64,000 nt of DNA from an uncultured Acidimicrobiaceae bacterium (GCA_964569015.1 CAZMSN010000003.1:9257-73256), one strand, 5' to 3'; shown: positions 15,543-47,611, numbered from the stretch's first letter. Notes: generated from the sequence alone by a model not told the origin. Made by a program: numbers and translations.

Positions 15543-15746
15543 GGCGACCGCTCCTCTTCGTTCGCCTTCTGAGGGTACCGGGTATGGGGTCTTAGGGCGA
15601 GAGTTATTTTCTTCGACCAGCCTCTTCTGAAACACTCGGCGTCCAGAGCAAGGCAGCTGATGCCGGCGGGTTCAGGCGCGACGGATGGGCCTTGGAACGC
15701 CATCGCCCAACGTCGTGAGGAGAGCGCCGCACCTACGCTGGAGCCG

Positions 15747-16778
15747 GTGCTTTCTCGTTTCACAGCCGACTACCGCTATGACCTGCCGGCGAGCGCTATC
15801 GCCCAGGCGGCGATCGAGCCGCGCGACTCGGCCCGACTGGTCCTGGCCGCGACCCTCGAGGATCGGCGCTTCTTCGATCTCCCCGAGCTGCTCACTCCAG
15901 GCGATCTGCTGGTCGTCAATCGGACGAGGGTCCGAGCCGCCCGCCTCCGGGGCGTGAAGACGGCTACCGGGGGCGCCGTCGAGGCGTTGCTGATTCGCCG
16001 CCGTGACGGAGACCATTGGGAAGCCCTGGTCAAGCCGGCGCGAAGGATCCGTCCCGGGACCGAACTCGACCTCGGAGACCTGCACGGCCGGGTGATCGAA
16101 GGCCCCGACGAAGGCGTTGTGGTGATGGAGCTGTGCGCCGAGAGCGGTAACGTCGAGGAGACGCTGGCACGGACGGGGAGCGTGCCGCTCCCGCCCTACT
16201 TTCATGGTGTGCTCGATGATCCGGAGCGGTACCAGACTGTGTACGCCGCCACCGTCGGCTCGGCGGCGGCCCCCACTGCCGGCCTACATTTCACGCCCGC
16301 GCTCCTCACCCGCTTGGCCGAACGGGGGATAGAACGGACCGAGGTCGACCTGGAGGTTGGACTCGACACCTTCCGGCCGATGACCGTGCCGAGCATCGAC
16401 GAGCACACCATGCACGAGGAACGCTACGTCGTTCCCGAGGCGGCGGCGGAGGCGATCGCCGCGGTGCGGCGCCGAGGTGGCCGTGTGGTGGCGGTCGGCA
16501 CGACGGTGGTCCGCGCACTGGAGACGGCGGCCGGCGAAAGCGGATTGGTGCGGGCCGGTTCGGGAGGGAGCGATCTCTTCATCACGCCCGGGTACCGCTT
16601 CGAAGTGGTCGATGCCGTCATCACCAACTTCCACGCACCGGGCACGACCCTGATCGTGATGGTGGCAGCCATGCTCGGGAGCCGGTGGCGGAGGGTCTAC
16701 GAGCATGCCCTGGAAGCCGGGTACCGTTTCTTGTCCTTCGGGGACGCCATGTACATCGAGAGCACTGGGAGACGGTGA
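15747..16778 (+). CDS. queA: S-adenosylmethionine:tRNA ribosyltransferase-isomerase
   Basis: The QueA N-terminal motif F-x-YDLP-xxxIAQ-x-P (FTADYRYDLPASAIAQAAIEP) sits 5 aa after GTG 15747. ATG 15660 is the longest alternative start. The remainder is conserved QueA sequence. Confidence 0.85.
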   Translation: MLSRFTADYRYDLPASAIAQAAIEPRDSARLVLAATLEDRRFFDLPELLTPGDLLVVNRTRVRAARLRGVKTATGGAVEALLIRRRDGDHWEALVKPARRIRPGTELDLGDLHGRVIEGPDEGVVVMELCAESGNVEETLARTGSVPLPPYFHGVLDDPERYQTVYAATVGSAAAPTAGLHFTPALLTRLAERGIERTEVDLEVGLDTFRPMTVPSIDEHTMHEERYVVPEAAAEAIAAVRRRGGRVVAVGTTVVRALETAAGESGLVRAGSGGSDLFITPGYRFEVVDAVITNFHAPGTTLIVMVAAMLGSRWRRVYEHALEAGYRFLSFGDAMYIESTGRR

Positions 16779-23277: not shown

Positions 23278-23362
23278 CCGGAGGCGGCCCGCCGTGGGGC
23301 ATTGCCGAGGTGCCCGGGTGCTCAAGGAAAGGGCAGGGGATTCCGATGAATCGTGTATGGGA

Positions 23363-24940
23363 ATGCGGTGTCGTACGCGTCCCTCCTCGGTGGTAACCGG
23401 GGAGGGTGGGTTTACCGTGGTCGAGTCGGTCGTGGCTGCGGGGATCATGCTGATCGCGATCGTCCTCAGCATCGTGCCGATCACCTTCGCTCTCCAGACC
23501 CTGGTGCGTGCTCAAGAGGTCACCGTCGCTGAGAACCTGGCGCAGGCGCGGATAGAGGAGGTGCGCAGCCTCGACTACGAGGATGTCGGGCATCCGGGCT
23601 CAGCGCCATCCGGCATCTTGGAGAGGACTCTCGTGCGCGACATCGAGGGCCACTCCTACACCGTCGAGACGAGCGTCGAGTACGTCGGCTCGAGCACCGG
23701 GCTCAACGTCATCCCGCAGGGCGGCGACGGGGTCGAGGGGACCTTCGACCTCGGCGTTGACTACAAGTACGTCGTCGTCACAGTGACCTCGCCGGACGCG
23801 GCCTTGCAGCCGGTGCGGATGGAGACGATCATGGCTCCTCCTACGGTGGGCGCCCTCGAGGCCGTGGCGGTGGTGTCGGTGACCGTCGATCGCCACGAGC
23901 CTTTCGATCCGTACGATCCCGTGATGTACCCGACACCTCAAATCCAGCTCTTCGGCCCCGACACGTACACGTCGCCGAACAACGACGACGTGCAGGTCTT
24001 CGCCGACGTCACCGAGGGGACCTACGAGATTCGCCTCTGGGGATCCACCGGGTGGCTGCTGCACCCCGAGACGGTGGCCTCGGGCGCCAATTTCGTCGAT
24101 GCCGCCGACGGTTGGGCGACGGACCGCACGATCCGTATCTACCGGCCAGCGTCGCTGACGGTCGATGTCACCGACGCCGACACGGGATTGCCCGTAACGG
24201 ACGCGGTCTTGGTGGCGGAAGGGTCGACGACCGGGGAGATCGTCACCAACCCGCCGGGGGAGTACGCCTTCGAGGGGCTGGTCCCCGATCACTACGTCGT
24301 GTCTGCCACCGCTACGGGCTACGAGAACAACAGCGTCGAGGTGGACGTTCCAGGATACGGAGGAGGCGACGAGGCGACGGCGTCCATCGAACTCGTGCCG
24401 CAAGTCTTCGTGCCGGTGTCATGGACCTTCACCGTCGACTACAACTGGGAGAGCCACTACGAGACCGCCGGGGCCGACGTGGTGGTGACCCACCCCACCT
24501 TCGGCACCTTCACCGGTGTCACGGGCCAGGAGGGTGAGGTCGTCATCGGCCTCCCCCCCAACGAGTCGGGATTCACGGTCACCGCCTCCACCCCGTGGGG
24601 CCACGAACCTGACGAGGAGACGTTTGAAACCTGGGGGTGGTGGCCCTCGACCGATCTACATCTCAGCAAGTCGTGGTGGGGCACAGACCTGTTCCGGCTC
24701 CGCAACGGACCGGACGAACCGGAATCCTTCTACGAGTACAAGGTGGGGAGCGGCGACTGGATCCGGGTCCCGGCCAACGACTCGGGCCGGGCCACCTTCG
24801 TCGTGGAGGAGTCGTTCGGGACGGTGGTGCAGCTCAGCGCCTACTGCGAGCTCGCCGACTACCCGTCCGACCCGCTCGACACCGAGTCGGTCACTCTCAA
24901 CAATTGGGATCAATCGTGGAACGTACACGGTCACTGCTGA
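23363..24940 (+). CDS. Large type-IV-pilin-like (pseudopilin) protein with a class III signal peptide and beta-sandwich domains
   Basis: The N-terminus MRCRTRPSSVVTGEGG|FTVVESVVAAGIMLIAIVL carries the prepilin cleavage motif G|FTxxE followed by a hydrophobic helix. The ~480-aa C-terminal region includes a CarboxypepD_reg/Cna-B-like segment (GLPVTDAVLVAEGSTTGEIVTNPPGEYAFEGLVPDHYVVSATATGYENNSVEV). The start could instead be ATG 23357. Confidence 0.6.
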   Translation: MRCRTRPSSVVTGEGGFTVVESVVAAGIMLIAIVLSIVPITFALQTLVRAQEVTVAENLAQARIEEVRSLDYEDVGHPGSAPSGILERTLVRDIEGHSYTVETSVEYVGSSTGLNVIPQGGDGVEGTFDLGVDYKYVVVTVTSPDAALQPVRMETIMAPPTVGALEAVAVVSVTVDRHEPFDPYDPVMYPTPQIQLFGPDTYTSPNNDDVQVFADVTEGTYEIRLWGSTGWLLHPETVASGANFVDAADGWATDRTIRIYRPASLTVDVTDADTGLPVTDAVLVAEGSTTGEIVTNPPGEYAFEGLVPDHYVVSATATGYENNSVEVDVPGYGGGDEATASIELVPQVFVPVSWTFTVDYNWESHYETAGADVVVTHPTFGTFTGVTGQEGEVVIGLPPNESGFTVTASTPWGHEPDEETFETWGWWPSTDLHLSKSWWGTDLFRLRNGPDEPESFYEYKVGSGDWIRVPANDSGRATFVVEESFGTVVQLSAYCELADYPSDPLDTESVTLNNWDQSWNVHGHC

Positions 24941-25572
24941 GCGCCGAGCGGGGCGTGACCTTGATGGAGGTCACGGTTGCCGCGGCCCTCTCGGCCATCC
25001 TCGCCGCCGCCCTCATCACGCTGGTCATCAGCGTCAACGGCAACGTGGTCCGGCAGGAGCAACGAGACAACGCCCTGCGCCAGGCACGCAGCACCGTCAG
25101 TCAGCTCGTCATCGAGCTGCGGCAGGCCCTCGACATCGACGGGGACGGCGTCGTGGTGGAGAGCCTCGACTCGTCGTGGGAGACCCTCGATCTCCAGTTC
25201 TATGCCGATCGCCTCACCGGCGACGAGGGGCCCGAGCTGTATCACTACCGACTCGCCGGCTGCGTCGACGGGCTCTGCGATCTCGTGCGAGATCGCTACT
25301 CGGCCGATCCCGGCAGCAGCCCCAACTGGACGTACACGTCGGATCCGGTGACACAGGTCATGGTGAGCAACGTCGTCGCCGACAGTCCCGAGCCGCTGGT
25401 GCAGGGAGTCTCCTGGGAATCGGGGAGCGAAGTGGTCGTGGACCTCTGCGGCGCAGGGCTGGCCTGCGATTTCGTGATGGTGCGGATTCGGCTCCGGGTC
25501 GAGCCGGATCGCCTGGGTGAAGGGATCGAGCCGGTGCAGGTAGCCGAGGACGTGAGGTTGCGCAATGCGTAG
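24916..25572 (+). CDS. Type-IV-pilin-like protein (minor pilin/pseudopilin)
   Basis: N-terminus VERTRSLLSAERG|VTLMEVTVAAALSAILAAALITLVISV, with G|xTLxE plus a hydrophobic helix. The GTG start overlaps the previous gene by 25 nt. 218 aa. Confidence 0.55.
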   Translation: MERTRSLLSAERGVTLMEVTVAAALSAILAAALITLVISVNGNVVRQEQRDNALRQARSTVSQLVIELRQALDIDGDGVVVESLDSSWETLDLQFYADRLTGDEGPELYHYRLAGCVDGLCDLVRDRYSADPGSSPNWTYTSDPVTQVMVSNVVADSPEPLVQGVSWESGSEVVVDLCGAGLACDFVMVRIRLRVEPDRLGEGIEPVQVAEDVRLRNA

Positions 25573-27178
25573 GCGCAGGTGGTGGCGGTTCGATGGCGAG
25601 GCAGGCTTTGCCCTGGGCACCGTGATCATCGGGGTGCTCACCATCGTGGTGCTCACGATCTTGGTCCACCGTTTGGCGGTGCGCCAGACCAGCGAGGCCG
25701 ACTTCGGAAAGCGCGAGGACACCGTGCTCGCCGGGACGGAGGCGATGTTGGAGCGCTACGCCGCCAAGATGTCGATCGATCCGTCCTACTACATGATCTA
25801 CGTCGACGAGGCCGAGGCGCCGCGGCTGTGTACCGACGGCGACTCGTCCGGCTACGGCGCGGTGGTCCAACCCGGGAACGCCTGGATCGCAGACTGCGGC
25901 ACGTGGGACTACGAGTACACCGATGAGTACTACCACCACCCGCTGCTCGGAGGCGCCAGCGACGAGGAGTGGGACGACATCGGCGTGCTGATGCATGTGA
26001 CACCTCCAACCCAGGCGGGCGCCCTCGAGGTCACCGTGGCGGGTCGTCAGGGCACCAAGCCGAATACCCGGGCGGTGACGGTGGAGATTCGGGCGGAGGC
26101 GGCCTCCGAGTTCGCGTGGCTCCTCGAGGAAGATCTCCGGTTTGGCGGCGGGGCGACGACCTTCGGCAAGGTGTATTCGGGCGGCAATGTGGGCTACCCC
26201 GCTGGCGGGGAAGCCTACGGCAACGTCTACGCCGAGGGCACGATCGGGTTCCGGGAAGGCCCCTACTGGTACTACCCGCCCACCTGGATGGACGGGGCCG
26301 AAGGCTGGGACAGCACCGGCAATCACAACGCGGCCGGTGAGTACATCACCGATGTGTACCCGGACCCGATCGACTTCGATAGATTCTGGGACGACCTCGA
26401 TCTGTTGGAGAAAGCGGCGTGCGAGGGGGGCGGTATCTGCCTCGACCCGGCCGAGAATCCGTCAATCCCGTCCGGAGTGGAGGCCTACCTGATCGAAACG
26501 GTGCAGGTCGCCGGGGAGACGCAACTGAAGGTGTCGTACGCCACGTCCCCGCCCTCGCACTCGCCCCCAGGGCAGACCGAGGAGAAATGGTGGGTCTGGT
26601 CCCACGACGCGAGCTGGACCTACCTCGACACCTATGCGATCCCGGTGAACGGGGCGCTGTGGGCCGACGAGCACGTCGTGGTCGGCCTCAACGATTCGAG
26701 TCCATTCGAGCTCTCCGGCAGGCTCACCATCTACGCCGGTGACTCCTCGGCCCGGTGCAACATCATCATCGGCAGCGACGTCCTTTACGCCGATGGTCTC
26801 GACGGTTCGGACGTGCTCGGACTGATCGCCTCCGACGAGATCTGGATCAACCCCCACGCCGTCGGGTGGTGGGATCGGGAGCTCAACATCTACGGCGCTC
26901 TGCTTTCCCAAAACGGGACCATCGCGACCGCGCTGCACAACGGCGACGCGGGACAGAGCATGACGCCGGCCCATTCGGTGCTCAACACGTACGGCTCCTT
27001 CGCCGCGGTGAGGACGGGGGACATGTCATCGTCCTTCGAAACCCGGAACTACAACTTCGACACCCGTCTCGAGCGGCTGTGCCCGCCGTTCTTCCCCCTC
27101 GTCAGCGAAGAGTGGACCTTCTCGAACTGGCGGGAGACGTCCATCCCGTGCTGGGCGACCGAGGAGGGCTGTCCGTAG
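25565..27178 (+). CDS. PilX-N-domain-like large pilin-like protein
   Basis: N-terminus MRRRRWWRFDGEAG|FALGTVIIGVLTIVVLTILV resembles the PilX N-terminal domain (G-[FA]-AL...L..L). The 500-aa C-terminal region is rich in W/Y/G/D. The start overlaps the previous gene. Confidence 0.55.
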   Translation: MRRRRWWRFDGEAGFALGTVIIGVLTIVVLTILVHRLAVRQTSEADFGKREDTVLAGTEAMLERYAAKMSIDPSYYMIYVDEAEAPRLCTDGDSSGYGAVVQPGNAWIADCGTWDYEYTDEYYHHPLLGGASDEEWDDIGVLMHVTPPTQAGALEVTVAGRQGTKPNTRAVTVEIRAEAASEFAWLLEEDLRFGGGATTFGKVYSGGNVGYPAGGEAYGNVYAEGTIGFREGPYWYYPPTWMDGAEGWDSTGNHNAAGEYITDVYPDPIDFDRFWDDLDLLEKAACEGGGICLDPAENPSIPSGVEAYLIETVQVAGETQLKVSYATSPPSHSPPGQTEEKWWVWSHDASWTYLDTYAIPVNGALWADEHVVVGLNDSSPFELSGRLTIYAGDSSARCNIIIGSDVLYADGLDGSDVLGLIASDEIWINPHAVGWWDRELNIYGALLSQNGTIATALHNGDAGQSMTPAHSVLNTYGSFAAVRTGDMSSSFETRNYNFDTRLERLCPPFFPLVSEEWTFSNWRETSIPCWATEEGCP

Positions 27179-37753: not shown

Positions 37754-39433
37754 TTGACCGGCGACGCCCGCCACCTGGGCACGATGCTCCTCGAAGAGGG
37801 GATGATCTCCAGCAAGGATCTCGAAGTCGCTGTCGCCAAACAGCGGACTTCCGGTCTTCCGCTGGGCAAGATCCTCATCGAGGAAGGCCTCGTGAACGAG
37901 GCCGATCTGGTGCGCACCCTGGCGCGGCAGATCGGTATCGAGTACGTGGACCTCAGCGAGATCGCCATCGACCCGGCCGCGGTGGCTCTCGTTCCGGAGT
38001 ACCTGCTCACGAGGTACCTCGTGCTCCCGATCGGTTTCGAGGACGATCGACTGGTGGTGGCGATGGCCGATCCCGCCAACGTGCTGGCCATCGACGATCT
38101 GCGGGCGGTGTCGGGCATGGGGATCTCCGCCAGGGTCGCTACTCGCACCGACCTCGAAGAGGCGATCCACCGCCAGCAGCGTCTCGACGACTCGGTCAGT
38201 GACCTCGCCGAACAGGCCGCCGAGGACAGACGCGAAGAAACGGACGTCAGCGGTCTCGAAGTGGCCGCCGAGGAAGCGCCGGTCGTCAAACTGATGAACA
38301 CCGTCATCGGACGGGCCGTCAACGAGCGCGCCTCAGATATTCACATCGAGCCAGGTGAACGCGACCTCAGGATCCGGTTCCGCATCGACGGTGTGCTGCA
38401 CGAGGTGATGTCGACGCCGCGAAGCATCGCCAATGCCGTCGTGAGTCGTATCAAGATCATGGCGGATCTCGACATCTCCGAGCGGCGGGTGCCTCAGGAC
38501 GGCAGAGTCGGCCTGCGAGTCGCGGGACGACCGGTCGACATCCGGGTCGCCACGCTGCCTTCCATCCACGGCGAGAAGGTCGTGCTCAGGATCCTCGACA
38601 AGGGCGCCAGCGTGGCGTCACTGGCGGATCTCGGCTTCCTGGACTACAACTTCAAGCGGTACGAATCGGCCTACAGCAAACCCTACGGGGCGATCCTGGT
38701 TACCGGTCCGACCGGCTCGGGCAAGACGACGACGCTCTACTCGACGCTGGCGGTGCTCAACCGCGAGGAAGTCAACATCATCACGGTGGAGGACCCGGTG
38801 GAGTATCGGCTGCCCGGGCTCACCCAGATGCAGGTCAATCGCAAGGCAGGCCTGCTGTTCTCCACGGCCCTCAAGTCGATCCTGCGCTCCGATCCCGACA
38901 TCATCCTCATCGGGGAGATCCGCGACGGGGAGACGGCGGCGATCGCAACGGAGGCGGCTCTGACCGGGCACCTCGTGCTCTCGACGCTGCACACCAACGA
39001 CGCCCCATCGGCGGTCGGGAGGCTCATTGACATGGGGGTTGAGCCGTTCCTCGTCAGCTCGTCACTCGACGCCGTCGTGGCGCAACGACTCGCCCGCACG
39101 CTGTGCGATCGCTGCAAGGTGCCGTACTCGCCGGAGCGTCGTGTGCTCGAGGACATCGGCTGGGAGTTCCACGGCTCGGACGAGATTCCTGAGCTGTACC
39201 GGGCTGAAGGCTGCCGGCATTGTGCCAACACGGGGTTCCGTGGCCGGACCAGCATCAACGAGATCATGTTGCTCAACGAAGAGATCCAGCACATGACGGT
39301 GGAACGCCATTCGGCCCGGGAGATCAAGAAGGCGGCCGTAGCCGAAGGGATGCGGACGCTCCGACAGGACGGGTTGGAGAAGGTGGCGCTCGGTGTGACC
39401 TCTCTGGAGGAGGTCCTCAGGGTCGTCGCGTGA
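37754..39433 (+). CDS. pilB: Type IV pilus assembly ATPase PilB (GspE family)
   Basis: 559 aa. An N-terminal T2SSE_N domain is followed by Walker A GPTGSGKTT, Asp/His boxes and a tetracysteine Zn motif (CDRC...CRHC). The TTG start follows GAGGAGG. Confidence 0.85.
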   Translation: MTGDARHLGTMLLEEGMISSKDLEVAVAKQRTSGLPLGKILIEEGLVNEADLVRTLARQIGIEYVDLSEIAIDPAAVALVPEYLLTRYLVLPIGFEDDRLVVAMADPANVLAIDDLRAVSGMGISARVATRTDLEEAIHRQQRLDDSVSDLAEQAAEDRREETDVSGLEVAAEEAPVVKLMNTVIGRAVNERASDIHIEPGERDLRIRFRIDGVLHEVMSTPRSIANAVVSRIKIMADLDISERRVPQDGRVGLRVAGRPVDIRVATLPSIHGEKVVLRILDKGASVASLADLGFLDYNFKRYESAYSKPYGAILVTGPTGSGKTTTLYSTLAVLNREEVNIITVEDPVEYRLPGLTQMQVNRKAGLLFSTALKSILRSDPDIILIGEIRDGETAAIATEAALTGHLVLSTLHTNDAPSAVGRLIDMGVEPFLVSSSLDAVVAQRLARTLCDRCKVPYSPERRVLEDIGWEFHGSDEIPELYRAEGCRHCANTGFRGRTSINEIMLLNEEIQHMTVERHSAREIKKAAVAEGMRTLRQDGLEKVALGVTSLEEVLRVVA

Positions 39434-39445
39434 CCTGCCGATAGT

Positions 39446-41095
39446 GTGCCGATGGTCACCAGCAACGTCGATCGGAAGCTGGGTGAGGTGCTCGTCAAAC
39501 GTCGCCTCCTGAGCCGGGATGACCTCGAATCCCATTTGGCTACCGTGAGTCGCACCGGCGAAGCGCTTCCCAATGTCTTGCTCGCCGCAGGGGGTGTGGA
39601 GCAGGTTGATCTCCTGCGAGTGGTATCGGAGCAGGTCGGTGTCGGTTTCGTCGATCTGGGGGCTCCCGACGCGCCCGTACCCGAGGCGGACGCACTGCAC
39701 ACCGTCCCCCAAACGCTGGCCGAGGAGCTCGGGGTGCTGCCGCTTCGATTGGAGACGGACGGGACACTCGTCGTCGCCATCGACAATCCCCTCGACGACG
39801 ATCGCCGCCGTGTTCTCGGGCAGGCGATCGACGGTGAGATCCAGATGATGCTGGCGCCGCGACCCTCTCTCCGTCGGGCCATCCTGCACGCCTACGACTC
39901 TCTGGACGGTCTCTCGCGGGCTCCCGGGGTTCCCGTCACCGGCTCTTCCGGCCCCGGCGATGTGCGAGGCGGGGAGCAGACTCGGGGCGGATCCGAAGAG
40001 GGAGACGATGGTGACGATGACGAGAGGATCTCGGTCACTGATCTCCTCCTCAGGCTGTTGAAGCGGAAGGGCTCCGATCTGCATCTGTCGGTGGGCGCCC
40101 CACCGATGCTGCGTATCGACGGATCCCTGGTGCCGCTCGACGACGTGGGAACGCTCGGGCCGTACCAGCTTCGCAAGATGATCTACGCCATTCTGACCGG
40201 CCGCCAGCGCGAGGAGCTGGAAGAGAACCTCGAGCTCGACCTGTCCTTTCCCATGAAGGACGTTGGCCGGTTCCGCGTCAACGTGTTCTTCCAACGAGAC
40301 TCGATCGGAGCCGTGTTGCGGGCGATTCCCAACCAGATCGTGCCGCTGTCCGATCTCGGGATCCCGCCCATCGTCGAAGGATTCGCCCAGCTCCAGCACG
40401 GCCTCGTTCTCGTGACCGGCCCGGCTGGTTGCGGCAAGTCGACCACGCTGGCGTCGATCGTTGACCTGATCAACACCTCCCGTGCTTGTCACGTCATCAC
40501 TCTCGAGGACCCGATCGAGTTCACACACCACCACAAGCGCTCGGTGGTCAATCAGCGAGAGATCGGCAGCGATACCCGGTCGTTCTCGATTGCGTTACGT
40601 CATGCGCTCCGGCAGGATCCCGACGTCATTCAGGTCGGCGAGATGCGAGACTTGGAGACGATCTCGACCGCGATCACCGCCGCCGAGACCGGCCACTTCA
40701 TCCTGGCGACTCTCCACACGCAGGATGCCCCCCAGTCGGTGGAGCGCATGATCGACGTGTTCCCATCCCAACAGCAGCGCCAGGTCCGGGTCCAACTCGC
40801 CAACTCGCTGCAGGCGGTGGTATCCCAGCAGCTGTTGCCGCGCGCCGACGGCACCGGACGGGCGGCGGCGGTGGAAGTGATGGTGGCGACCCCGGCGATT
40901 CGCAACCTGATCCGGGAGGGGAAGGTCCATCAGATCACGACTGCGATGCAATCGGGCGGCAAGTTTGGGATGGAGACGATGGACGACTCTCTGGCCCGGC
41001 TCGTCAGGACGGGTAAGGTCGCCTACGAGGTCGCCTACGAGCATGCCCACGATCCCGAGGGCTTCGAGAGCCTGACAAAGAGGCGGGCACGATGA
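39446..41095 (+). CDS. pilT: Twitching-motility retraction ATPase PilT with an N-terminal T2SSE_N-like extension
   Basis: The PilT core has Walker A GPAGCGKST and the PilT signature AIRNLIREGKVHQI. It is preceded by a ~150-aa domain resembling the PilB/GspE N-terminal domain and an acidic Gly-rich linker. 549 aa against ~345 for typical PilT. Confidence 0.85.
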   Translation: MPMVTSNVDRKLGEVLVKRRLLSRDDLESHLATVSRTGEALPNVLLAAGGVEQVDLLRVVSEQVGVGFVDLGAPDAPVPEADALHTVPQTLAEELGVLPLRLETDGTLVVAIDNPLDDDRRRVLGQAIDGEIQMMLAPRPSLRRAILHAYDSLDGLSRAPGVPVTGSSGPGDVRGGEQTRGGSEEGDDGDDDERISVTDLLLRLLKRKGSDLHLSVGAPPMLRIDGSLVPLDDVGTLGPYQLRKMIYAILTGRQREELEENLELDLSFPMKDVGRFRVNVFFQRDSIGAVLRAIPNQIVPLSDLGIPPIVEGFAQLQHGLVLVTGPAGCGKSTTLASIVDLINTSRACHVITLEDPIEFTHHHKRSVVNQREIGSDTRSFSIALRHALRQDPDVIQVGEMRDLETISTAITAAETGHFILATLHTQDAPQSVERMIDVFPSQQQRQVRVQLANSLQAVVSQQLLPRADGTGRAAAVEVMVATPAIRNLIREGKVHQITTAMQSGGKFGMETMDDSLARLVRTGKVAYEVAYEHAHDPEGFESLTKRRAR

Positions 41096-42336
41096 GCGCC
41101 ACCGAGGTCAGTTCCACCTACCGCTATCGCGTCCGGGACAAGACGGGGATGATCGTCTCGGGCGAGATCGACGCCAGCTCTCCGGCGAGGGTGGCCGAGA
41201 TGCTCCGTGAACAAGGACTGACACCGATCCACGTCGAGGCGAAATCGACCAGCTTGCTGCAACGCGAGATCAAGATCCCCGTCCTCGGCAATCGACTGAA
41301 GCCCCGTGACGTCGTCATCTTCAGCAGGCAGTTCGCCACCATGATCAACTCGGGGCTGTCGCTCATCAGAGCCCTCGGGGTGCTCGTCGAGCAGACCTCG
41401 AGCCCGGCGCTCGCGGAGATCCTCAGAGAGGTGCGCTCCGATGTCCGCGAGGGCGCCAGCCTGTCGTTTGCGATGGAGAAGCATCCCAAGGCGTTCAACG
41501 AGCTCTACGTGGCGATGGTCCGCGCCGGCGAAGTGGGTGGGGTGCTCGACGAGACGCTCAATCGCCTGGCCGGGATGCTCGAGGCCAACCTCAACCTCCG
41601 TTCCAAGGTTCGATCGGCGATGGCCTATCCAACCGTGATCGCCATCCTCATCACCGGAGTGACGGCGGCGATGATCATGTTCGTGGTGCCGATCTTCGCC
41701 AACATGTACACCGAGATCGATGAGGAAGCGGTGCTCCCGCTGCCGACGCGGATGCTCGTCTCCGTCTCTTCGACGGTGACACGCTGGTGGTTCGTGATCG
41801 TGGGCCTGATCGTGGCCGCGGTGTGGGGGCTGCGGCGCTGGCGCAGCACCGAGGCCGGGAGGCTCGCCCTCGACCGCCTCAAGCTGCGGATTCCGGTCTT
41901 CGGGCGCCTGGCGCACAAGACGGCGATGAGCCGCTTCTCGCGCACGATGGCGGTCCTGAGCGGAACCGGCGTGCCGATCCTGCAAGCGATCGACATCGTC
42001 GGCGACACAGCCGGCAACCAGGTGGTGACGAACGCCCTGGTGGACGTGAAGGAAGCGGTGCGCGCGGGCGAGTCGCTGGCGGAACCGCTGAGCCGCCACA
42101 AGGTGTTCCCCCCGATGGTGGTGCAGATGATGACGGTGGGGGAGGAGACGGGAGCGCTCGACGACATGCTCGCCAAGGTGTCCGACTTCTACGACCGCGA
42201 GGTCGACGACACCGTCAACGCCCTCACCAGCCTCATCGAGCCCTTGTTGATCGTGGTCATGGGGGGCGCCGTGGGAGGGATCCTCATCTCGCTCTACCTG
42301 CCGATTTTCAACCTCGCCCAGCTCGTCAACGGCTGA
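41092..42336 (+). CDS. pilC: Type IV pilus inner-membrane platform protein PilC (GspF family)
   Basis: 414 aa with two T2SSF repeats. ATGA overlap with pilT. Confidence 0.85.
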   Translation: MSATEVSSTYRYRVRDKTGMIVSGEIDASSPARVAEMLREQGLTPIHVEAKSTSLLQREIKIPVLGNRLKPRDVVIFSRQFATMINSGLSLIRALGVLVEQTSSPALAEILREVRSDVREGASLSFAMEKHPKAFNELYVAMVRAGEVGGVLDETLNRLAGMLEANLNLRSKVRSAMAYPTVIAILITGVTAAMIMFVVPIFANMYTEIDEEAVLPLPTRMLVSVSSTVTRWWFVIVGLIVAAVWGLRRWRSTEAGRLALDRLKLRIPVFGRLAHKTAMSRFSRTMAVLSGTGVPILQAIDIVGDTAGNQVVTNALVDVKEAVRAGESLAEPLSRHKVFPPMVVQMMTVGEETGALDDMLAKVSDFYDREVDDTVNALTSLIEPLLIVVMGGAVGGILISLYLPIFNLAQLVNG

Positions 42337-42401
42337 ACAGGCCCGTCGCGGTCAAATGGGCTCAACCGCGGAGGCATCCGGAGCCGATAACGGTTGGTGA
42401 G

Positions 42402-42418
42402 GGGTCGATGTGCGACCC
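42402..42418 (+). promoter_or_regulatory. Conserved 5'-UTR stem-loop upstream of pilin copy 1 (a second copy lies at 43090-43106 upstream of pilin copy 2)
   Basis: The motif is GGGTCG-N5-CGACCC. Both stem arms are conserved between the two paralogous leaders, while the loop differs (ATGTG vs AGATC). It sits about 22 nt upstream of each pilin ATG. Confidence 0.35.
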
Positions 42419-42440
42419 GGCGAGAGAAAGGTCCTTTCCT

Positions 42441-42992
42441 ATGCGATGGATGCGGGAGCGTCTCAGCAAGGAAGAGGGATTCACGCTCATCGAGTTCATG
42501 GTGGTGGTGCTGATCATGGCAGTGCTGGTGGCCATCGCCATTCCGTCCTTCCTCGGATTCCGTCATCAGGCCCAAGATCGCGCCGCGCAGAGCGATCTGC
42601 GGAACGCGTTGCTGGCCGAGAAGGCCGTCTACACCAATGACAGCTCGTTCACGGGCGTCGAGGCCGACCTGAAGGCGTGGGAACCCACGGTGGTGACCGC
42701 GGCGGCCTTGAGCACGGACGCGGTGTACGTGCAGTTCGCGGCGGCGACGTCTGATCAGGTGTGCCTCTCCCAGAAGAGCGACTCCGGGTCGACGTTCATG
42801 ATCTACGAGAACGGCACCGGCGGCACGTTCTATGCCGCCGCCGGCTCGGGCACCACGATCACGTGCCCGAGCGCCGCCGCCCCGACCCTGCCACCCAAGC
42901 AGGTCAGGGTCGCCTGGAGCGCCACCGGCTTCCCCGACGCTCCGGCGGGGAAGAAGGTCACCCCGACACCTGTCACGATCTCGCCGCTCTGA
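42441..42992 (+). CDS. pilA: Type IV major pilin (copy 1)
   Basis: Leader MRWMRERLSKEEG|FTLIEFMVVVLIMAVLVAIAIPSF is a canonical class III signal with Glu+5. Two Cys (disulfide D-region). 183 aa. The ribosome-binding site AGAGAAAGG lies upstream. Confidence 0.85.
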   Translation: MRWMRERLSKEEGFTLIEFMVVVLIMAVLVAIAIPSFLGFRHQAQDRAAQSDLRNALLAEKAVYTNDSSFTGVEADLKAWEPTVVTAAALSTDAVYVQFAAATSDQVCLSQKSDSGSTFMIYENGTGGTFYAAAGSGTTITCPSAAAPTLPPKQVRVAWSATGFPDAPAGKKVTPTPVTISPL

Positions 42993-43128
42993 GGGACGGG
43001 CCGGCGCCACGACGCCACTTGCCGTATGCGACGGTCAACGGAAAGTGGCTCAATCGGTGTGCGGTACCCGCCGATAACCATTGGGAAGAGGGTCGAGATC
43101 CGACCCCTTGAGAGAAAGGTCCATTCCT

Positions 43129-43614
43129 ATGCGATGGATGCGAGAGCGTCTCAGCAAGGAAGAGGGATTCACGCTCATCGAGCTCATGGTGGTGGTGCTG
43201 ATTATGGCAGTGCTAGTGGCCATCGCCATTCCCTCCTTCCTCGGATTCCGTCATCAAGCCCAAGATCGCGCCGCGCAGAGCGATCTGCGTAACGCGTTGC
43301 TGGCCGAGAAGGCGGTCTTCACGGCAACCAACGCGTTCACGGACGTCGAAGCCGAGCTGAAGGCGTGGGAGCCCACGGTGGTAACCGGCGCCGCCTTGAG
43401 CACGGACACGGTGTACGTGGAGTATGCCGCGGCCACGTCTGATCAGGTGTGCCTCTCCCAGGCGAGCGACTCCGGGTCGACGTTCATGGTCTACGAGAAC
43501 GGCACCGAAGGCACCTTCTACGGATCGGGCGACGCCATCACGTGCCCGAGCGCCGCCGCCCCGGCGATCCCGCCGGTGCAGGCGAGCGTCGACTGGAGCG
43601 AAACAGGCTGGTAG
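43129..43614 (+). CDS. pilA: Type IV major pilin (copy 2, tandem paralogue)
   Basis: About 90% nucleotide identity to copy 1 across the 5'-UTR and most of the CDS. Same leader MRWMRERLSKEEG|FTLIELMVV. 161 aa. Confidence 0.85.
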   Translation: MRWMRERLSKEEGFTLIELMVVVLIMAVLVAIAIPSFLGFRHQAQDRAAQSDLRNALLAEKAVFTATNAFTDVEAELKAWEPTVVTGAALSTDTVYVEYAAATSDQVCLSQASDSGSTFMVYENGTEGTFYGSGDAITCPSAAAPAIPPVQASVDWSETGW

Positions 43615-43643
43615 GAGGTTTTGTAAGAGCTTCGTGCTCACGA

Positions 43644-43676
43644 ACGAGGGGACGGACACGGAGTCCGTCCCCTCGT
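43644..43676 (+). terminator. Intrinsic-terminator-like hairpin downstream of pilin copy 2
   Basis: Perfect 14-bp GC-rich stem ACGAGGGGACGGAC / GTCCGTCCCCTCGT with a 5-nt loop, 30 nt after the pilin stop. There is no clear U-tract, which is common in high-GC genomes. Confidence 0.45.
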
Positions 43677-43741
43677 ACGCGTTCGCCACAATGCCGCGAC
43701 CCGCTCGGGTGCTTCTCTAGCCTGCGGCATCGGGAGGCACC

Positions 43742-44515
43742 ATGACCGTATCACTCGTCATTCTGGGGGCCCTGCTCGGGCTCGCCGCCGGCTCGTTCGT
43801 CAACGTGGTGGCGTACCGTGTCCCGCAGCGGGCTTCTCTTCTCCGTCCGCCGTCACACTGCCCTCAGTGCGAGCATGCGATTCTGCGCCGTGACCTGGTC
43901 CCGGTGCTGTCATGGGCGTTGCTGCGGGGGAGATGCCGCAATTGTGGGGGGCGCATCTCTATCCGGTACCCGCTGGTGGAGCTGGGCACGGCTCTGCTGT
44001 TCATAGCCACCGTGCTCGTGCTGGGAGCGGTGTGGGTGATACCGGCGTACTGGGTGTTCGTCACGGTGACCCTGGCGCTGGCCCTCATCGACATCGACCA
44101 CAAGCTGATCCCCAATCGGGTGCTCTTCCCCGGATCGGGGGTCGCCGCAGCCGCCCTGCTCGCGGGGGCGATCGCCGAAGGCACACCGGGATGGTGGCTG
44201 CGGGGAGTCGCCGGCGCGGCCGGGTACTTCGTCGGGTTGCTGCTGCTGGCGCTGATCGCGCCCCGGGGCGGCCTGGGCATGGGCGACGTCAAGCTGGCGC
44301 TGCTGCTCGGGCTGTTCCTGGGCTACCAGGCGTGGGAGCACGTTCTCCTCGGGGCGTTCATCGCGATCCTGCTCGGTGGGTTGGTCTCGGCGGTTCTCCT
44401 CCTCATGCGGAGGAAGGGGAGACAGGACACGATTCCCTTCGGTCCCTACCTCGTGGCCGGCGCCTACGTGACGATCGCATTCGGGGAGCAGATCCTCGAC
44501 TGGTACTTGGGCTAG
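43742..44515 (+). CDS. pilD: Prepilin peptidase (A24 family) PilD
   Basis: N-terminal Zn-binding CxxC...CxxC (CPQCEH...CRNCGG), polytopic membrane domain, and catalytic Asp residues (IDIDHKLIP, GMGDVKL). 257 aa. Confidence 0.9.
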   Translation: MTVSLVILGALLGLAAGSFVNVVAYRVPQRASLLRPPSHCPQCEHAILRRDLVPVLSWALLRGRCRNCGGRISIRYPLVELGTALLFIATVLVLGAVWVIPAYWVFVTVTLALALIDIDHKLIPNRVLFPGSGVAAAALLAGAIAEGTPGWWLRGVAGAAGYFVGLLLLALIAPRGGLGMGDVKLALLLGLFLGYQAWEHVLLGAFIAILLGGLVSAVLLLMRRKGRQDTIPFGPYLVAGAYVTIAFGEQILDWYLG

Positions 44516-44674
44516 GCATTCCCTCGATGTCGCCGCTGCGTAGGCCTGGTGACGACGGCAGCAGGTAGCCTGTCGTTGGCTCCTTCATGCAAAGGCGCTA
44601 CGATCAAAACGTGGATGGAATGACAGCGCTGTAATTTCATCCTTCGAGGGGCTCCACAGTCGAGCGGAGAATGC

Positions 44675-45739
44675 ATGGCCGTAACGGTTGGCCTTGATAT
44701 CGGCGGTAGTGCCGTGCGGGCCGCGGTTCTCGATTCCGGCAAGAATCGCTGGGTACTGCGCCGGTTTGCCGAGATGCCGCTGCCACCCGGGGCCGTCACC
44801 GCCGGCGAGGTGATCGACGAAGGGGCGGTGTCGGAAGCCATCGCCGCTCTGTGGCGGCGCTCCAAGCTCCCCAAGCGGCGGATCGTGGTCGGCCTCGCCA
44901 GCCAGCGGCTCGTCGTTCGCCAGGTCGACGTGCCGAACCTCGGCGCCGAGGAGTTGGCGGAGGCGCTGCCCTATCAGGTGCAGGATTCGATTCCGCTCGC
45001 CGTCGAGGACGCGGTGCTCGACTACGTCCCCCTCGAGGAGTTCATGACGGCCGACGGCGACCCCATGCAGTCGATTCTCGTGATCGCGGTGTACCGGGAG
45101 ATCGTCGACTCGATGATGCGCGTGCTCGCAGGAGCCAATCTCACGCCGACGGCGATCGATCTCCAGCCCTTCGGCCTGGTGCGGGCGATCTTCGGCATCG
45201 AGGCGAGCGTGGGAAGCCCGCTCCAAGCGCTGGTCGACATCGGGGCTTCGGTGACCCAGGTTGCAATCACTCGCGCCGGGACGGCGCGGTTCGTGCGCCT
45301 CTTGCCGCGCGGCGGAGAAGATTTCACGTCGGTGCTCGTCAACGGCCTGGAAATGGACGTTGACGACGCCGCCGACCTCAAGGCTCGACTCGGGGTACGC
45401 GCCGAAGGCACTCCGGCTGAGAGCGACCCGGATGCAGCGGCGCAGCGCCTGCTCACCCTGGAGGCCGACGAGTTGATCGATGACATCCGCGACTCGATCG
45501 ACTTCTTCCTCTCCCAATCCGCCGGCACCACTCTCGAGCGGCTGGTGGTGGCGGGCAACGGCGCCCGGCTCCCGCACCTCGCGAATCGTATGGCTCGGCT
45601 CATGGGCGTACAGGTCGAGCCGGCGAGGATTCTCGACATCGTCGAGGTGGGCCGGGTGGAGCTCGACGAGGATGAGATGCTCGAAGCCCAGCCGGTGCTA
45701 CCAACGGCCCTCGGACTGGCGCTGTGGGGGGAGGTCTGA
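44675..45739 (+). CDS. pilM: Type IV pilus assembly protein PilM (actin-like ATPase fold)
   Basis: 354 aa with the PilM/FtsA-like N-terminus VGLDIGGSAVRAAVL. Confidence 0.8.
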   Translation: MAVTVGLDIGGSAVRAAVLDSGKNRWVLRRFAEMPLPPGAVTAGEVIDEGAVSEAIAALWRRSKLPKRRIVVGLASQRLVVRQVDVPNLGAEELAEALPYQVQDSIPLAVEDAVLDYVPLEEFMTADGDPMQSILVIAVYREIVDSMMRVLAGANLTPTAIDLQPFGLVRAIFGIEASVGSPLQALVDIGASVTQVAITRAGTARFVRLLPRGGEDFTSVLVNGLEMDVDDAADLKARLGVRAEGTPAESDPDAAAQRLLTLEADELIDDIRDSIDFFLSQSAGTTLERLVVAGNGARLPHLANRMARLMGVQVEPARILDIVEVGRVELDEDEMLEAQPVLPTALGLALWGEV

Positions 45740-46356
45740 TGCGGCCCATCAACCTTCTCCCGCCCGAGGCCTTCGAGCGCAGCGCCGGCCGGCGGCGGTT
45801 CGTCCGGCTCGCCCTCATCGGCCTGCTTTACCTCGTACTGCTCGGACTCGTCTTCATCATCGCCCGGCGCGACACCGCCGACATTCGCCACGACGTCGAC
45901 GCCCAGCTCGCCGTCAACTCCAACCTGGAGGCGCAGCGGGCCGAGATGCAGGGCGCCGACGAGCTGGTGGATCGTTACGACCAGAACAGTGCGCTCCTGT
46001 CGGCGCTGCTGGTCTCCGACGTGTCGTGGGGACGGATACTCAATGACCTGGGGCGGATGATCCCCGATCGGATATGGCTCGCCAGTTTCCAGGGAAGGGT
46101 CGACAACGACCCGACCACGCCGGCGCACGGGACCATTCAGGTGAGCGGCACCGGATTCGACTTCGGAGACGTGGCTGCGTGGTTGCGGGCGCTGGACTCC
46201 GACCGCTTCCCCTCGGTGGCGGGCACCTGGGTATCGACCGTGGCAGGCGAGGAGATCAGCGACATCCCGGTGGTCGTCTTCGAGTCGCAGACCTCGCTGA
46301 CGGAGTCAGCGCTCACCGATCGTCTCGCCGAGCGCATTCCGGAGGTGGGGAGATGA
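45739..46356 (+). CDS. pilN: Type IV pilus assembly protein PilN
   Basis: The N-terminal conserved INLLP motif (MRPINLLPPE) is followed by one TM helix and a periplasmic/extracellular coiled-coil. TGATG overlap with pilM. Confidence 0.7.
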   Translation: MRPINLLPPEAFERSAGRRRFVRLALIGLLYLVLLGLVFIIARRDTADIRHDVDAQLAVNSNLEAQRAEMQGADELVDRYDQNSALLSALLVSDVSWGRILNDLGRMIPDRIWLASFQGRVDNDPTTPAHGTIQVSGTGFDFGDVAAWLRALDSDRFPSVAGTWVSTVAGEEISDIPVVVFESQTSLTESALTDRLAERIPEVGR

Positions 46357-47075
46357 AGCGCTCCACCATCTGGCTGCTCGTCGGAGGGCTCTTGGTGGGA
46401 ACCGTGGTGTGGTGGATGTTCCTGATGTCGCCGGAACGGTCCTCGGCCGCCGACGCCCGTGAAGAGCTGGAGATGGCCCAGCTTCGAGAGGCGACGATCC
46501 GCACCCAGATCGCTCAGCTCTCCGACATCATCGACACGGAGATCTCCTACCGGTTCGCCATCGGCGAGATGGAGACCGCGGTCCCGGTTCAGCCACAGGC
46601 AGACGTCTTCATCGAGGACCTCACCTTCCTCGCCGAGAGCACCGGGGTCGACATCTTCTCGTTCGCCCTCTCCCGGCCGACGCCGATCGAGTTCACGGCC
46701 GCAGGCCAGGTCGGGCTCGAGGCCTACGCGGTGACGGTGACCGTCTCCGCGCAAGGCCAGTACTTCGAGGTGCTCGGCTTCCTGTACGGCCTGGAGGCGA
46801 TGGACCGGCTGGTACGGGTCGATTCGATCGGCCTCAGTCCCGGGCAAGAGGCCGAGGAGCCGGAGCAGCCGCCCGAGGAGCCGGAGGAGGACGGCACCAC
46901 GACCACCACGACGACGATCGCCGAACCGCGCCTTCGTCCCGAGCCCGACGTGCTCGCGGTCCAGATAGCTATGAGGATCTTCACGCGCAGCGCGGCGGAC
47001 GTTCCCGACACTAGTTCGGTGCCTGCCGACGGTGGATCGGCCGAGATCGAGAGCGGCGAGGAGTCGACCCAATGA
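46353..47075 (+). CDS. pilO: Type IV pilus assembly protein PilO-like
   Basis: A single N-terminal TM helix, a coiled-coil, a ferredoxin-like core, and a C-terminal acidic/Pro plus poly-Thr tail. ATGA overlap with pilN. Assignment rests on position and topology. Confidence 0.6.
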   Translation: MKRSTIWLLVGGLLVGTVVWWMFLMSPERSSAADAREELEMAQLREATIRTQIAQLSDIIDTEISYRFAIGEMETAVPVQPQADVFIEDLTFLAESTGVDIFSFALSRPTPIEFTAAGQVGLEAYAVTVTVSAQGQYFEVLGFLYGLEAMDRLVRVDSIGLSPGQEAEEPEQPPEEPEEDGTTTTTTTIAEPRLRPEPDVLAVQIAMRIFTRSAADVPDTSSVPADGGSAEIESGEESTQ

Positions 47076-47611
47076 GATGGCCACGATTGCGCGGCTTGGC
47101 GGCGGGGTTCATCGCCCTGGGACTGGTCGTCGCCGGAACGGTGGCCGCCTGGATCGTCATCACCTCAGGGGTCCTGGCCGCCCAGCCCGGGCGGCCGGAC
47201 GACGGCCCTGAGCGACCTCGCGCCGCCACTGAGGCGCTCGAGGCGACAGAATCCGCACCGCTTTCGGCGTCTTTCCAGATCTCCCAGCCGCGTGACCCCT
47301 TCCGCCCCCTGATCACCGAGGGATCCACCACGGGCGACATTCCCGGCATCGGGGGGGTTCCCGGTGGCGAGGAGCCCGCCGACGGCGACGGCTTCGCGCC
47401 GACGGCGACAACGATCACTCTCAAGGCGATACGCGAAGTCAGCGGCGTGCTGCGCGCCACTGTCGTGGTCGGCACGGTGAGCTACGACGTCGGCGTTGGG
47501 GATACGTTCGCCGTGTCCTACAAGGTCATCAGCTTGACCACGACGAAGGGCGTCTTCACCTTCGGCGACAGTGCATTCGAGCTCAGCATCGGCCAGCAGA
47601 TCCTCAAATAG
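47072..47611 (+). CDS. PilP-like pilus assembly protein
   Basis: TM helix, an RDPFRPL motif (PilP-type R[ND]PF), a Gly/Pro-rich linker, and a C-terminal beta-rich domain. ATGA overlap with pilO. Confidence 0.45.
   Translation: MRWPRLRGLAAGFIALGLVVAGTVAAWIVITSGVLAAQPGRPDDGPERPRAATEALEATESAPLSASFQISQPRDPFRPLITEGSTTGDIPGIGGVPGGEEPADGDGFAPTATTITLKAIREVSGVLRATVVVGTVSYDVGVGDTFAVSYKVISLTTTKGVFTFGDSAFELSIGQQILK

Follow-up and report, generated by a model that had tools for sequence, protein, structure and literature searches.

ComZ, a competence-pilus tip pilin of Thermus thermophilus (PDB 6QVI), combines a GspK-like pilin fold with an inserted beta-solenoid and has been argued to be located at the tip together with PilA2, a pilin of the I class (PMC6561018). 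A solenoid of this kind is present in every cyanobacterial PilX homologue and has been proposed to function as a PilY1-like plug (bioRxiv 10.64898/2026.02.12.705559). In modular pilins, such as CofB and the S. sanguinis proteins PilB and PilC, a pilin module precedes domains not restricted to pili, and exposure of these proteins at the tip is expected (PMC8179133). The tip of the T2SS pseudopilus consists of GspI, GspJ, and GspK (PDB 3CI0), and type IVa pili have the set PilV-PilW-PilX.

The window analysed here is a 64-kb stretch of DNA from the genome of an uncultured member of the actinobacterial Acidimicrobiia. It contains three same-strand open reading frames, g1, g2, and g3, which overlap in series and are positioned between relA and the gene of an MBL hydrolase. 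The overlaps of 25 nt (g1/g2) and 8 nt (g2/g3) agree with an earlier sequence-only reading, in which the locus was described as three consecutive overlapping genes encoding 527, 218, and 537 aa. The features of the trio are:

23357..24940, + strand: g1, I-class (GspI/PilV-like) modular minor prepilin, 527 aa, assigned from its predicted fold and conserved N-terminus
24155..24352, + strand: CarboxypepD_reg (PF13620) beta-sandwich domain in g1, aa 267–332, E 1.1e-10, 42.1 bits versus a cut-off of 32.3
24916..25572, + strand: g2, small minor prepilin, 218 aa, GTG start, candidate J-class subunit from gene position and weak HMM signals
25565..27178, + strand: g3, K-class capping minor prepilin of ComZ-like architecture, 537 aa, assigned from its predicted fold and conserved N-terminus
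26111..27055, + strand: predicted beta-solenoid module of g3, approximately aa 183–497, ice-binding-protein/DUF3494 type

All three proteins have the prepilin features of a short basic leader ending with Gly and a hydrophobic helix directly after it. These features are conserved in the families of g1 (53 homologues), g2 (16), and g3 (94). The leaders are 13–18 aa long and rich in Arg. The Gly at position −1 (G18 in g1, G13 in g2, and G14 in g3) is at least 90% conserved in each family alignment, and the class III motifs recognised in the sequence-only reading are thus located at conserved N-termini and not mid-protein. When all 64 kb were scanned for the motif in six frames, exactly five class III-type N-termini were identified, those of g1, g2, g3, and the two PilA genes of the pil operon described below; one further match was an antisense artefact. 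All five prepilins have Glu at −3 in addition to Gly at −1, and the leaders of the trio therefore end with E-x-G, as do those of PilA1 and PilA2. The genes are arranged in the I-J-K order of the GspI-GspJ-GspK and PilV-PilW-PilX sets, which together with the overlapping reading frames suggests that they are co-translated. Unlike in those sets, no family HMM for such subunits reaches its cut-off for the trio, the six-frame motif scan of the 64-kb window did not detect an H-class (GspH/FimU) adapter pilin, and no PilY1 was found.

The leader of g1, MGMRCRTRPSSVVTGEGG, comprises aa 1–18 and is directly followed by FTVVE, with cleavage predicted after G18 and with both Phe1 and Glu5 present. Residues G18, F19, T20, and E23, which corresponds to Glu5, are each at least 90% conserved in the homologue alignment. 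The ATG start at position 23357 is backed by homologue P0097, which likewise begins with MGM; one gene caller selected a GTG start at 23294, resulting in a protein of 548 aa (P0095). The predicted structure of g1 contains an alpha1 helix (aa 21–70) and a pilin sheet (approximately aa 91–159) forming a small pilin fold of the GspI type. Unlike in GspI, which has approximately 100 aa, the pilin module is followed in the AF2 model by about four beta-sandwich domains (approximately aa 171–262, 265–346, 354–423, and 431–522). The CarboxypepD_reg domain, already proposed from the sequence and now placed by the PF13620 match, is also precomputed for most g1 homologues. With this domain, g1 combines a pilin module with at least one domain that is not pilus-specific, the arrangement that defines modular pilins (PMC8179133). 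However, the modules of g1 are predicted CarboxypepD_reg/CnaB-like beta-sandwich repeats and not the vWA or lectin modules of S. sanguinis. Matches of g1 to I-class HMMs are below the cut-offs (HpsB, E 6.2e-4, 19.8 bits versus 150; ComGE, E 0.11). The g1 of the window does not match PF07963 or TIGR02532, the former of which is present in two of the 53 listed relatives (P0142 and P0147).

The leader of g2, MERTRSLLSAERG, comprises aa 1–13 and is followed by VTLME, including Glu5. In the family alignment E18, which corresponds to Glu5, is invariant, and a C-terminal VRLRN motif is conserved. The g2 of the window scores just under the prepilin cut-offs of PF07963 (20.1 versus 21.2 bits) and TIGR02532 (15.3 versus 16.3 bits); PF07963 is matched by 16 of 20 g2 relatives (best E 2.5e-6). 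J-class HMMs match many of the 20 family members (PpdB, PRK10557, in 16; HpsC in 15; ComGF in nine; and GspJ in six), all under the curated cut-offs and with a best E of 2.3e-4. A profile of the g2 family compared with PDB sequences matched N-terminal helices only. The signals are weak but consistent, and point to g2 as a putative J-class subunit (GspJ/PilW/ComGF/HpsC-like). The matches of g1 to HpsB and of the g2 family to HpsC, although far under the equivalog cut-offs, are a likeness to the cyanobacterial sets PilV/PilW/PilX and HpsB/HpsC/HpsA, in which minor pilins can also be encoded away from the machinery genes.

The leader of g3, MRRRRWWRFDGEAG, comprises aa 1–14 and precedes FALGT. 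Conservation is at least 90% for G14 and A16, and Glu5 is absent throughout the 94 homologues, as it is from GspK and PilX. The predicted structure contains an alpha1 helix (aa 12–71), pilin strands (approximately aa 87–176), and a final strand (aa 518–525) that follows the solenoid. The absence of Glu5 and the interrupted GspK-type fold are characteristic of the K class, with the insertion read from the predicted order of secondary structure elements alone. The insert, in contrast to the alpha-helical domain of GspK, is modelled as a large triangular beta-solenoid of the ice-binding-protein type, positioned before the last pilin strand as in ComZ. In cyanobacterial PilX, the solenoid proposed to substitute for PilY1 is similarly located between the penultimate and last strands (10.64898/2026.02.12.705559). 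The solenoid of g3 is rich in Trp and Tyr. The C-terminal domain had previously been described as having an unknown fold; it indeed lacks Pfam and NCBIfam matches, as does all of g3 even at E ≤ 1, but its fold can now be predicted.

PilX_N (PF14341) is touched by only three of 81 g3 relatives (best E 0.0011), the g3 of the window does not match NF037980 (GspK), and a profile of the 81 relatives did not find ComZ at E ≤ 1 among all PDB sequences; at the sequence level, no homology of g3 to either ComZ or GspK is detectable. Nevertheless, ComZ is the top structural match to the g3 model by two methods, and the proteins are of similar size (537 aa versus 518 residues in the aligned chain 6qvi_A). 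The structural alignments have 12–15% identity and the global TM-score is low, approximately 0.27 (0.23–0.28), so that the likeness of the modelled g3 to ComZ is one of architecture and domains and not a rigid-body match. The solenoid also resembles ice-binding proteins and the Caldicellulosiruptor tapirins (PDB 4WA0 and 6N2B), of which the matched chains are C-terminal domains only, and the likeness is limited to this part of g3. Mature g3 is strongly acidic, with a pI of 4.22 and seven Lys in 523 aa (family median pI 4.5). PilA is about as acidic, and the property may simply reflect the proteome. The g3 superfamily, for which Pfam has no model, comprises 2,347 representatives at 50% identity.

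Like ComZ, which is accompanied by PilA1–PilA3, g3 is encoded beside smaller minor pilins that include an I-class partner. In contrast to the ComZ system, this partner is very large because of its approximately four extra domains, and there are three minor-pilin genes instead of four, located apart from the major pilin gene. Because the host is a monoderm actinobacterium, the pilus has no secretin to pass through. The cyanobacterial sets also belong to a different phylum with a different cell envelope, and whereas cyanobacteria have two specialised sets, a single one is visible here. The three proteins had been called far larger than usual, which is correct relative to major pilins; however, large modular and ComZ-like minor pilins have already been described (PMC8179133, PMC6561018).

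The end of g3 is separated by 10.6 kb of housekeeping genes from the start of pilB, where Pfam and NCBIfam place the main pilus operon that the sequence-only reading had put about 11 kb away. The operon (37754–47611) consists of:

37754..39433, + strand: PilB extension ATPase with an N-terminal MshEN/c-di-GMP domain (Pfam/NCBIfam)
39446..41095, + strand: PilT-family retraction ATPase with an MshEN-like N-terminal extension (TIGR01420, 468 bits versus a cut-off of 319; PF05157)
41092..42336, + strand: PilC platform protein (Pfam/NCBIfam)
42441..42992, + strand: pilA1, major-pilin-type prepilin, leader MRWMRERLSKEEG followed by FTLIE (Pfam/NCBIfam)
43129..43614, + strand: pilA2, 82% identical to pilA1, with an identical leader (Pfam)
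43742..44515, + strand: PilD prepilin peptidase, A24_N_bact and Peptidase_A24 (Pfam)
44675..47611, + strand: pilM, pilN, pilO, and a 179-aa membrane-anchored protein of unknown family (Pfam/NCBIfam)

With PilB, PilT, PilC, two PilA, PilD, and PilMNO the operon is otherwise complete, but Pfam, NCBIfam, and the six-frame motif scan detected no minor pilins in it. PilD is presumably the processing enzyme of all five prepilins.

The trio and the operon co-occur in relatives. Among loci in which both sites are visible, three contain both (the window itself, L019, and L087), 14 contain neither, and none is discordant; L003, L004, L005, and L142 are outside this count, as their operon site is just past the fetched flank. 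Fisher's exact test gives p ~0.0015 under an assumption of independent loci, which does not hold, as the counts are phylogenetically clustered. In the 14 loci with neither, relA abuts the MBL gene, and of the pil region only aroE-pilD-aroC is left. The sequence-only reading had named the presence of the trio in relatives lacking pili as evidence against its insertion; no relative without the pil operon carries the trio. Altogether, relA directly adjoins the MBL gene in approximately 18 relatives, and the trio is a presence/absence polymorphism, in partial agreement with the proposed insertion. However, it is an old cassette and not a recent insertion, because relatives with as little as 37% g3 identity keep the relA-trio-MBL arrangement and the GC content of the trio is that of its flanks. 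Loss of the trio is at least as likely as gain. The three genes behave as a unit, and a cassette of the same composition recurs in distant lineages (L140 and L141).

We conclude that g1–g3 are probably the core minor pilins of a retractile type IVa-like pilus built by the PilB/PilT/PilC/PilD/PilMNO machine at 37.7–47.6 kb. The support comes from gene structure, conserved prepilin N-termini, predicted folds, and operon co-occurrence; the rest of the genome lies outside the window and may encode another filament system that co-varies with the trio. The sequence-only reading had proposed a minor-pilin or tip-adhesin priming complex for this pilus, and the proposal gains from the GspI-like fold predicted for g1, the GspK- and ComZ-like fold predicted for g3, the lack of minor pilins in the operon, and the strict co-occurrence. 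By analogy with the GspI-J-K and PilV-W-X/ComZ-PilA2 complexes, PilD would cleave the leaders after the conserved Gly, and the hydrophobic alpha1 helices of g1 (I), g2 (J), and g3 (K) would bundle in the membrane into a trimer. The trimer would prime the polymerisation of PilA1/PilA2 beneath it and so end at the filament tip, a priming and capping role like that of GspI-GspJ-GspK. The capping subunit would be g3, because it lacks Glu5 and has a bulky beta-solenoid set into its pilin fold. The solenoid and the approximately four beta-sandwich domains of g1 may form a ligand-binding head in the role that PilY1 has in proteobacteria; our guess for its ligand is a surface or a polysaccharide, and not DNA.

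An identical tip complex could be specialised as a DNA receptor for natural transformation, with g3 binding DNA like ComZ and PilT retraction leading to ComEA/ComEC uptake, but we consider this rather unlikely. ComZ, the best structural match of g3, binds DNA and is essential for transformation and not for piliation (PMC6561018), and the operon encodes a PilT-family retraction ATPase. However, g3 differs from the DNA-binding ComZ in being acidic, which is a weak argument against non-specific DNA binding given that PilA is similarly acidic. In cyanobacteria, the competence subfamily of PilX and the motility/EPS subfamily alike contain the solenoid, which is therefore no functional marker (10.64898/2026.02.12.705559). 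The tapirin and ice-binding-protein likeness of g3 fits surface or polysaccharide binding equally, and comEA, comEC, and dprA were not seen within the 64-kb window, outside which lies the rest of the genome.

It is improbable that the trio acts in the priming of another type IV filament whose genes are elsewhere in the genome, such as a Tad pilus or a Com-like or T2SS-like pseudopilus, and that its closeness to the pil operon is coincidental. Tad genes have been reported in related Acidimicrobiia (PMC12008989), and the PilD-like peptidase kept in relatives without the operon implies another PilD-dependent system in the lineage. The intervening housekeeping genes and the stand-alone trios of distant lineages, which have no pil genes within 10 kb, also fit a different filament. 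However, of the relatives that retain the peptidase, and with it presumably the other system, 14 of 14 have lost both the trio and pilBTCMNO, which weakens the separate pseudopilus previously offered as an alternative. Furthermore, the trio shares the E-x-G leader ending with PilA1/PilA2, the pil operon is itself without any minor pilin, and the TadE match is weak (one of 81 g3-family members, E 0.009), with no further Tad-type family match for the trio.

It is very improbable that g1–g3 are unprocessed membrane-anchored surface proteins (signal-anchor adhesins or S-layer-like) with N-termini merely resembling class III signal peptides: prepilin models stay just under the cut-off for g2 and do not match g1 or g3, and PilFind does not predict ComZ itself as a PilD substrate (PMC6561018), but Gly−1 and Glu5 are near-invariant in the g1 and g2 families, the predicted alpha1 helices of 50–60 residues lead into pilin-type sheets matching GspI and GspK, the gene order is I-J-K, and the trio strictly co-varies with the pilus machine.

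More tentatively than its role as the core minor pilins of the nearby pilus, the trio may constitute a portable, self-contained 'tip cassette' with large binding modules on its I- and K-class subunits, forming a two-armed head of approximately 130 kDa on an actinobacterial pilus. Such a cassette would replace PilY1 and, kept or lost in step with the pil operon 10 kb away, would track lifestyle (free-living versus sponge-associated Acidimicrobiia). The g3 superfamily would then be the main pilus tip-cap family in monoderm and candidate-phyla bacteria. The system is of a known kind in a little-studied lineage, and its worth is in annotation rather than surprise. The cassette would also be gained, lost, and duplicated as a unit, with stand-alone copies in L140 and L141 and a tandem copy of the trio in L004.

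Three overlapping genes between relA and an MBL-hydrolase gene encode minor prepilins (g1, g2 and g3, the trio) that probably form a priming and capping complex at the tip of the PilA filament, the machinery of which is encoded 10.6 kb beyond the end of g3.

23357–24940, + strand: g1, ORF of 527 aa
24916–25572, + strand: g2, ORF of 218 aa with a GTG start
25565–27178, + strand: g3, ORF of 537 aa

The overlaps are 25 nt (g1/g2) and 8 nt (g2/g3). The g1 product begins with MGMRCRTRPSSVVTGEGG followed by FTVVE, that of g2 with MERTRSLLSAERG followed by VTLME, and that of g3 with MRRRRWWRFDGEAG followed by FALGT. Database searches identified 53 homologues of g1, 16 of g2 and 94 of g3, essentially all from Acidimicrobiia/Actinomycetota metagenomes. 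In the homologue alignments, the g1 and g2 families conserve Gly-1, Phe/Val+1 and Glu+5, and the g3 family conserves Gly-1 and Ala+2, without Glu+5. When all six frames of the window were searched for the prepilin motif plus an uncharged hydrophobic stretch, the only matches were the trio, the two PilA genes and a single antisense artefact; the leaders of all five prepilins end in E-x-G. The trio motifs are not due to chance, because they are conserved within families and occur in only five genes, plus the artefact, in the scan. The class III-type N-termini recognized by the sequence-only reading are thus genuine family features. The g1 start at 23357 matches that of homologue P0097, and an alternative GTG at 23294 is used by one gene caller. 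An identical copy of the trio region is present on a JGI metagenome contig. Gene content and nearest relatives assign the window to uncultured Acidimicrobiia. The GC content of the window is high (~0.66–0.70), and a promoter and terminator scan of 22.8–28.0 kb returned nothing above shuffled controls.

The predicted structure of g3 is confident (pLDDT 92, pTM 0.82) and comprises an alpha1 helix of 60 residues and pilin strands, then a long beta-solenoid (~aa 183–497) and one final strand; the solenoid occupies the C-terminal region that had been described as a domain of unknown fold. By predicted fold, g3 belongs to the K-class (after GspK) and resembles ComZ, a pilin of the Thermus thermophilus competence pilus, which is the sole significant PDB match to the model (Foldseek, E 3.9e-7, probability 1.00). 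With a global TM-score of just ~0.27, the match is one of architecture, not a rigid-body fit. ComZ has been described as having a GspK-like pilin fold into which a beta-solenoid is set ahead of the final strand; it binds DNA as well as the I-class pilin PilA2, and a position at the pilus tip has been argued (PMC6561018). The same solenoid-bearing architecture is reported for every cyanobacterial PilX homologue, where it is proposed to serve as a tip plug in place of PilY1 (bioRxiv 10.64898/2026.02.12.705559). The g3 family profile did not link g3 to ComZ among PDB sequences; its only two matches were marginal and non-significant (E 0.48 and 0.89). g3 itself matched no Pfam or NCBIfam family, and Pfam gave essentially no matches among 81 g3 relatives and ten distant relatives. 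The profile retrieved 2,347 cluster representatives (50% identity) at E ≤ 1e-3, 129 of them at E ≤ 1e-30; the 2,347 include AT-rich, Lys/Asn-rich proteins of 450–916 aa with the same terminal motifs and no Pfam model. The distant relatives inspected share a PilX-like N-terminus and a C-terminal Y-x-F/Y-D...PPP-x-F/Y-P motif. The number of representatives and their common termini indicate that g3 belongs to a large unannotated PilX/ComZ-like superfamily.

The AlphaFold2 model of g1, calculated from a 51-sequence alignment (pLDDT 85), has a 50-residue alpha1 helix and a small pilin sheet, followed by about four beta-sandwich domains. The CarboxypepD_reg-type beta-sandwich suspected from the sequence was confirmed by Pfam (PF13620, aa 267–332, score over the cut-off). 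Because of the predicted pilin module, which places g1 in the I-class by fold, the beta-sandwiches and the PF13620 match, g1 is assigned to the minor pilins of the I-class, as one that has become a modular pilin as defined by Raynaud et al. (PMC8179133). A loop of the pilin module (aa 121–137, window 23717–23767; Q-G-G-D-G-V-x-G-x-x-D-x-G...K) is near-invariant across 51 homologues and has low model confidence (pLDDT ~46–57); it could be a metal-binding or inter-subunit contact site.

The best inference for g2 is a J-class pilin, from its place between the I-class and K-class genes and from weak family matches among 20 relatives (PpdB 16, HpsC 15, ComGF 9, GspJ 6). Prepilin HMMs scored g2 slightly under their cut-offs, the g2 family profile matched PDB sequences in alpha1 only, and no Pfam family was found. 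Membership according to curated HMMs failed for g1, g2 and g3 alike.

The pil operon is flanked by aroE and aroC, and the six-frame motif scan detected no minor pilins in it.

37754–47611: pil operon encoding PilB, PilT-family ATPase, PilC, two PilA, PilD, PilM, PilN, PilO and a 179-aa protein
37754–39433: PilB, with an MshEN-type N-terminal domain over its cut-off
39446–41095: PilT-family ATPase (TIGR01420, 468 bits)
42441–42992 and 43129–43614: tandem major-pilin genes, 82% identical
47072–47611: 179-aa protein, last in the operon

The PilT-family ATPase carries an MshEN-like N-terminal extension of ~190 aa (PF05157, E 1.4e-11). The c-di-GMP motif model gives this extension 32 bits, below its cut-off of 38. 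MshEN-type domains are probably uncommon among PilT-type ATPases. With such domains on both ATPases, the extension and retraction motors may both sense c-di-GMP. The tandem pilA genes share the leader MRWMRERLSKEEG, followed by F, and may give rise to a heteropolymeric or variable filament. The 179-aa protein has an N-terminal membrane anchor, matches nothing in Pfam or NCBIfam, and may be PilP-like or a part of the machine specific to this lineage.

The tip-priming complex that the sequence-only reading proposed for the 37.7–47.6 kb pilus is supported by the folds, the motifs and the co-occurrence of trio and operon in relatives; processing, complex formation, tip location and ligand are inferred. 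PilD would process g1–g3, and their alpha1 helices would assemble within the membrane into a trimer of the I-J-K type that would nucleate PilA polymerization and ride at the tip. Lacking Glu5 and bearing a bulky solenoid, g3 would cap the filament, and its solenoid would present a binding surface together with the beta-sandwich array of g1. The resemblance to ComZ points to DNA as the ligand. However, the mature form of g3 is highly acidic, with a pI of 4.22 and 7 Lys, and has a high content of Trp and Tyr (8.8%); the cyanobacterial solenoid is present in competence and motility sets alike; and tapirins, like ice-binding proteins, bind surfaces. These properties favour adhesion to surfaces or polysaccharides, and a DNA receptor is unlikely.

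The trio is predicted to work like the GspIJK, PilVWX and ComZ–PilA2 tip complexes. It differs from the described systems in the enlargement of its I-class subunit by about four beta-sandwich domains, the lack of an H-class (GspH/FimU) subunit and of PilY1 within the 64-kb window, the detachment from the machinery genes, and the actinobacterial (monoderm) host. As viewed in 64 kb of genome and in predicted structures, these differences amount to variation on a known kind of system, and the trio does not reveal a new mechanism. Three "hypothetical" families of uncultured Acidimicrobiia gain a testable function, and the ComZ/PilX beta-solenoid cap, known in Thermus and cyanobacteria, is shown by predicted structure to occur in Actinomycetota also and is part of a very large unannotated superfamily.

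Linkage was scanned from AlaS, which is located between the trio and operon sites, so that 10-kb flanks span both; all window genes were mapped onto the retrieved loci. All of the best AlaS matches come from Acidimicrobiia MAGs. A metagenome scan anchored on YceG contributed L087 and L088 as its only relevant loci, the rest being from unrelated lineages. Trio and operon are both present in the window, L019 and L087, the only three such cases with both sites in view; in L003, L004, L005 and L142 the flank stops inside aroE, ~0.5 kb short of the operon site. Both are missing from 14 loci, in which relA abuts the MBL gene. There are no discordant loci, such as the relatives without type IV pili but with the trio that the sequence-only reading had considered. 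Fisher's test gives p ~0.0015 with loci taken as independent, which they are not, because the lineages with the trio branch as a grade between two clades that lack it in the AlaS neighbour-joining tree (single gene, no support values). The negative clades include sponge-associated lineages, matching the reported absence of type IVa pilus genes from sponge-associated relatives; for their Tad genes no such absence is reported, with one exception (PMC12008989). In agreement with that report, the trio and pilBTCMNO make a simple marker pair for pilus-dependent lifestyles in Acidimicrobiia. Acidimicrobiia-type gene order with 63–66% AlaS identity also occurs in MAGs labelled Saprospiraceae, Kiloniellales and Acidobacteria (L012, L015, L016), and these contigs are probably binning contaminants.

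In the 14 loci without trio and pilBTCMNO (L007, L008, L011, L012, L017, L018, L020–L024, L027, L030 and L032), only a PilD-like A24 prepilin-peptidase homologue lies directly after aroE (~positions 15000–15800 each), with aroC detected after it in nine. Some of these peptidases have no Cys-rich N-terminal domain. This suggests an operon remnant, or a peptidase common to another filament such as Tad. That the trio serves the filament using this peptidase is argued against by the genomes that keep the peptidase and have no trio.

The order relA–trio–MBL is kept in L003, L004, L005, L019 and L142, with g3 identities of 37–56%, and the GC content of the trio (0.66) is like that of its flanks (0.66–0.69). 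The proposed insertion holds in so far as the trio is absent where relA abuts the MBL gene; a recent horizontal insertion is rejected by the composition and by synteny kept down to 37% g3 identity. The trio is therefore an old presence/absence cassette. Loss is hinted at by the peptidase kept at the site of the operon, and the single-gene AlaS tree fits gain or loss alike. The cassette behaves as a unit, since L004 (3758–11548) carries two tandem copies of the complete trio between relA and the MBL gene and distant three-gene versions are located on their own among unrelated metabolic genes (L140, 8066–11398; L141, 8314–11446), with no pil genes within 10 kb. In the first L004 copy, the g1-like frame is lost after ~aa 340 and reads on into the g2-like gene (ORF called 734 aa), owing either to pseudogene formation or to an error in the long-read assembly. 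In L141 the g1-like gene is smaller (360 aa), and in L140 it is split.
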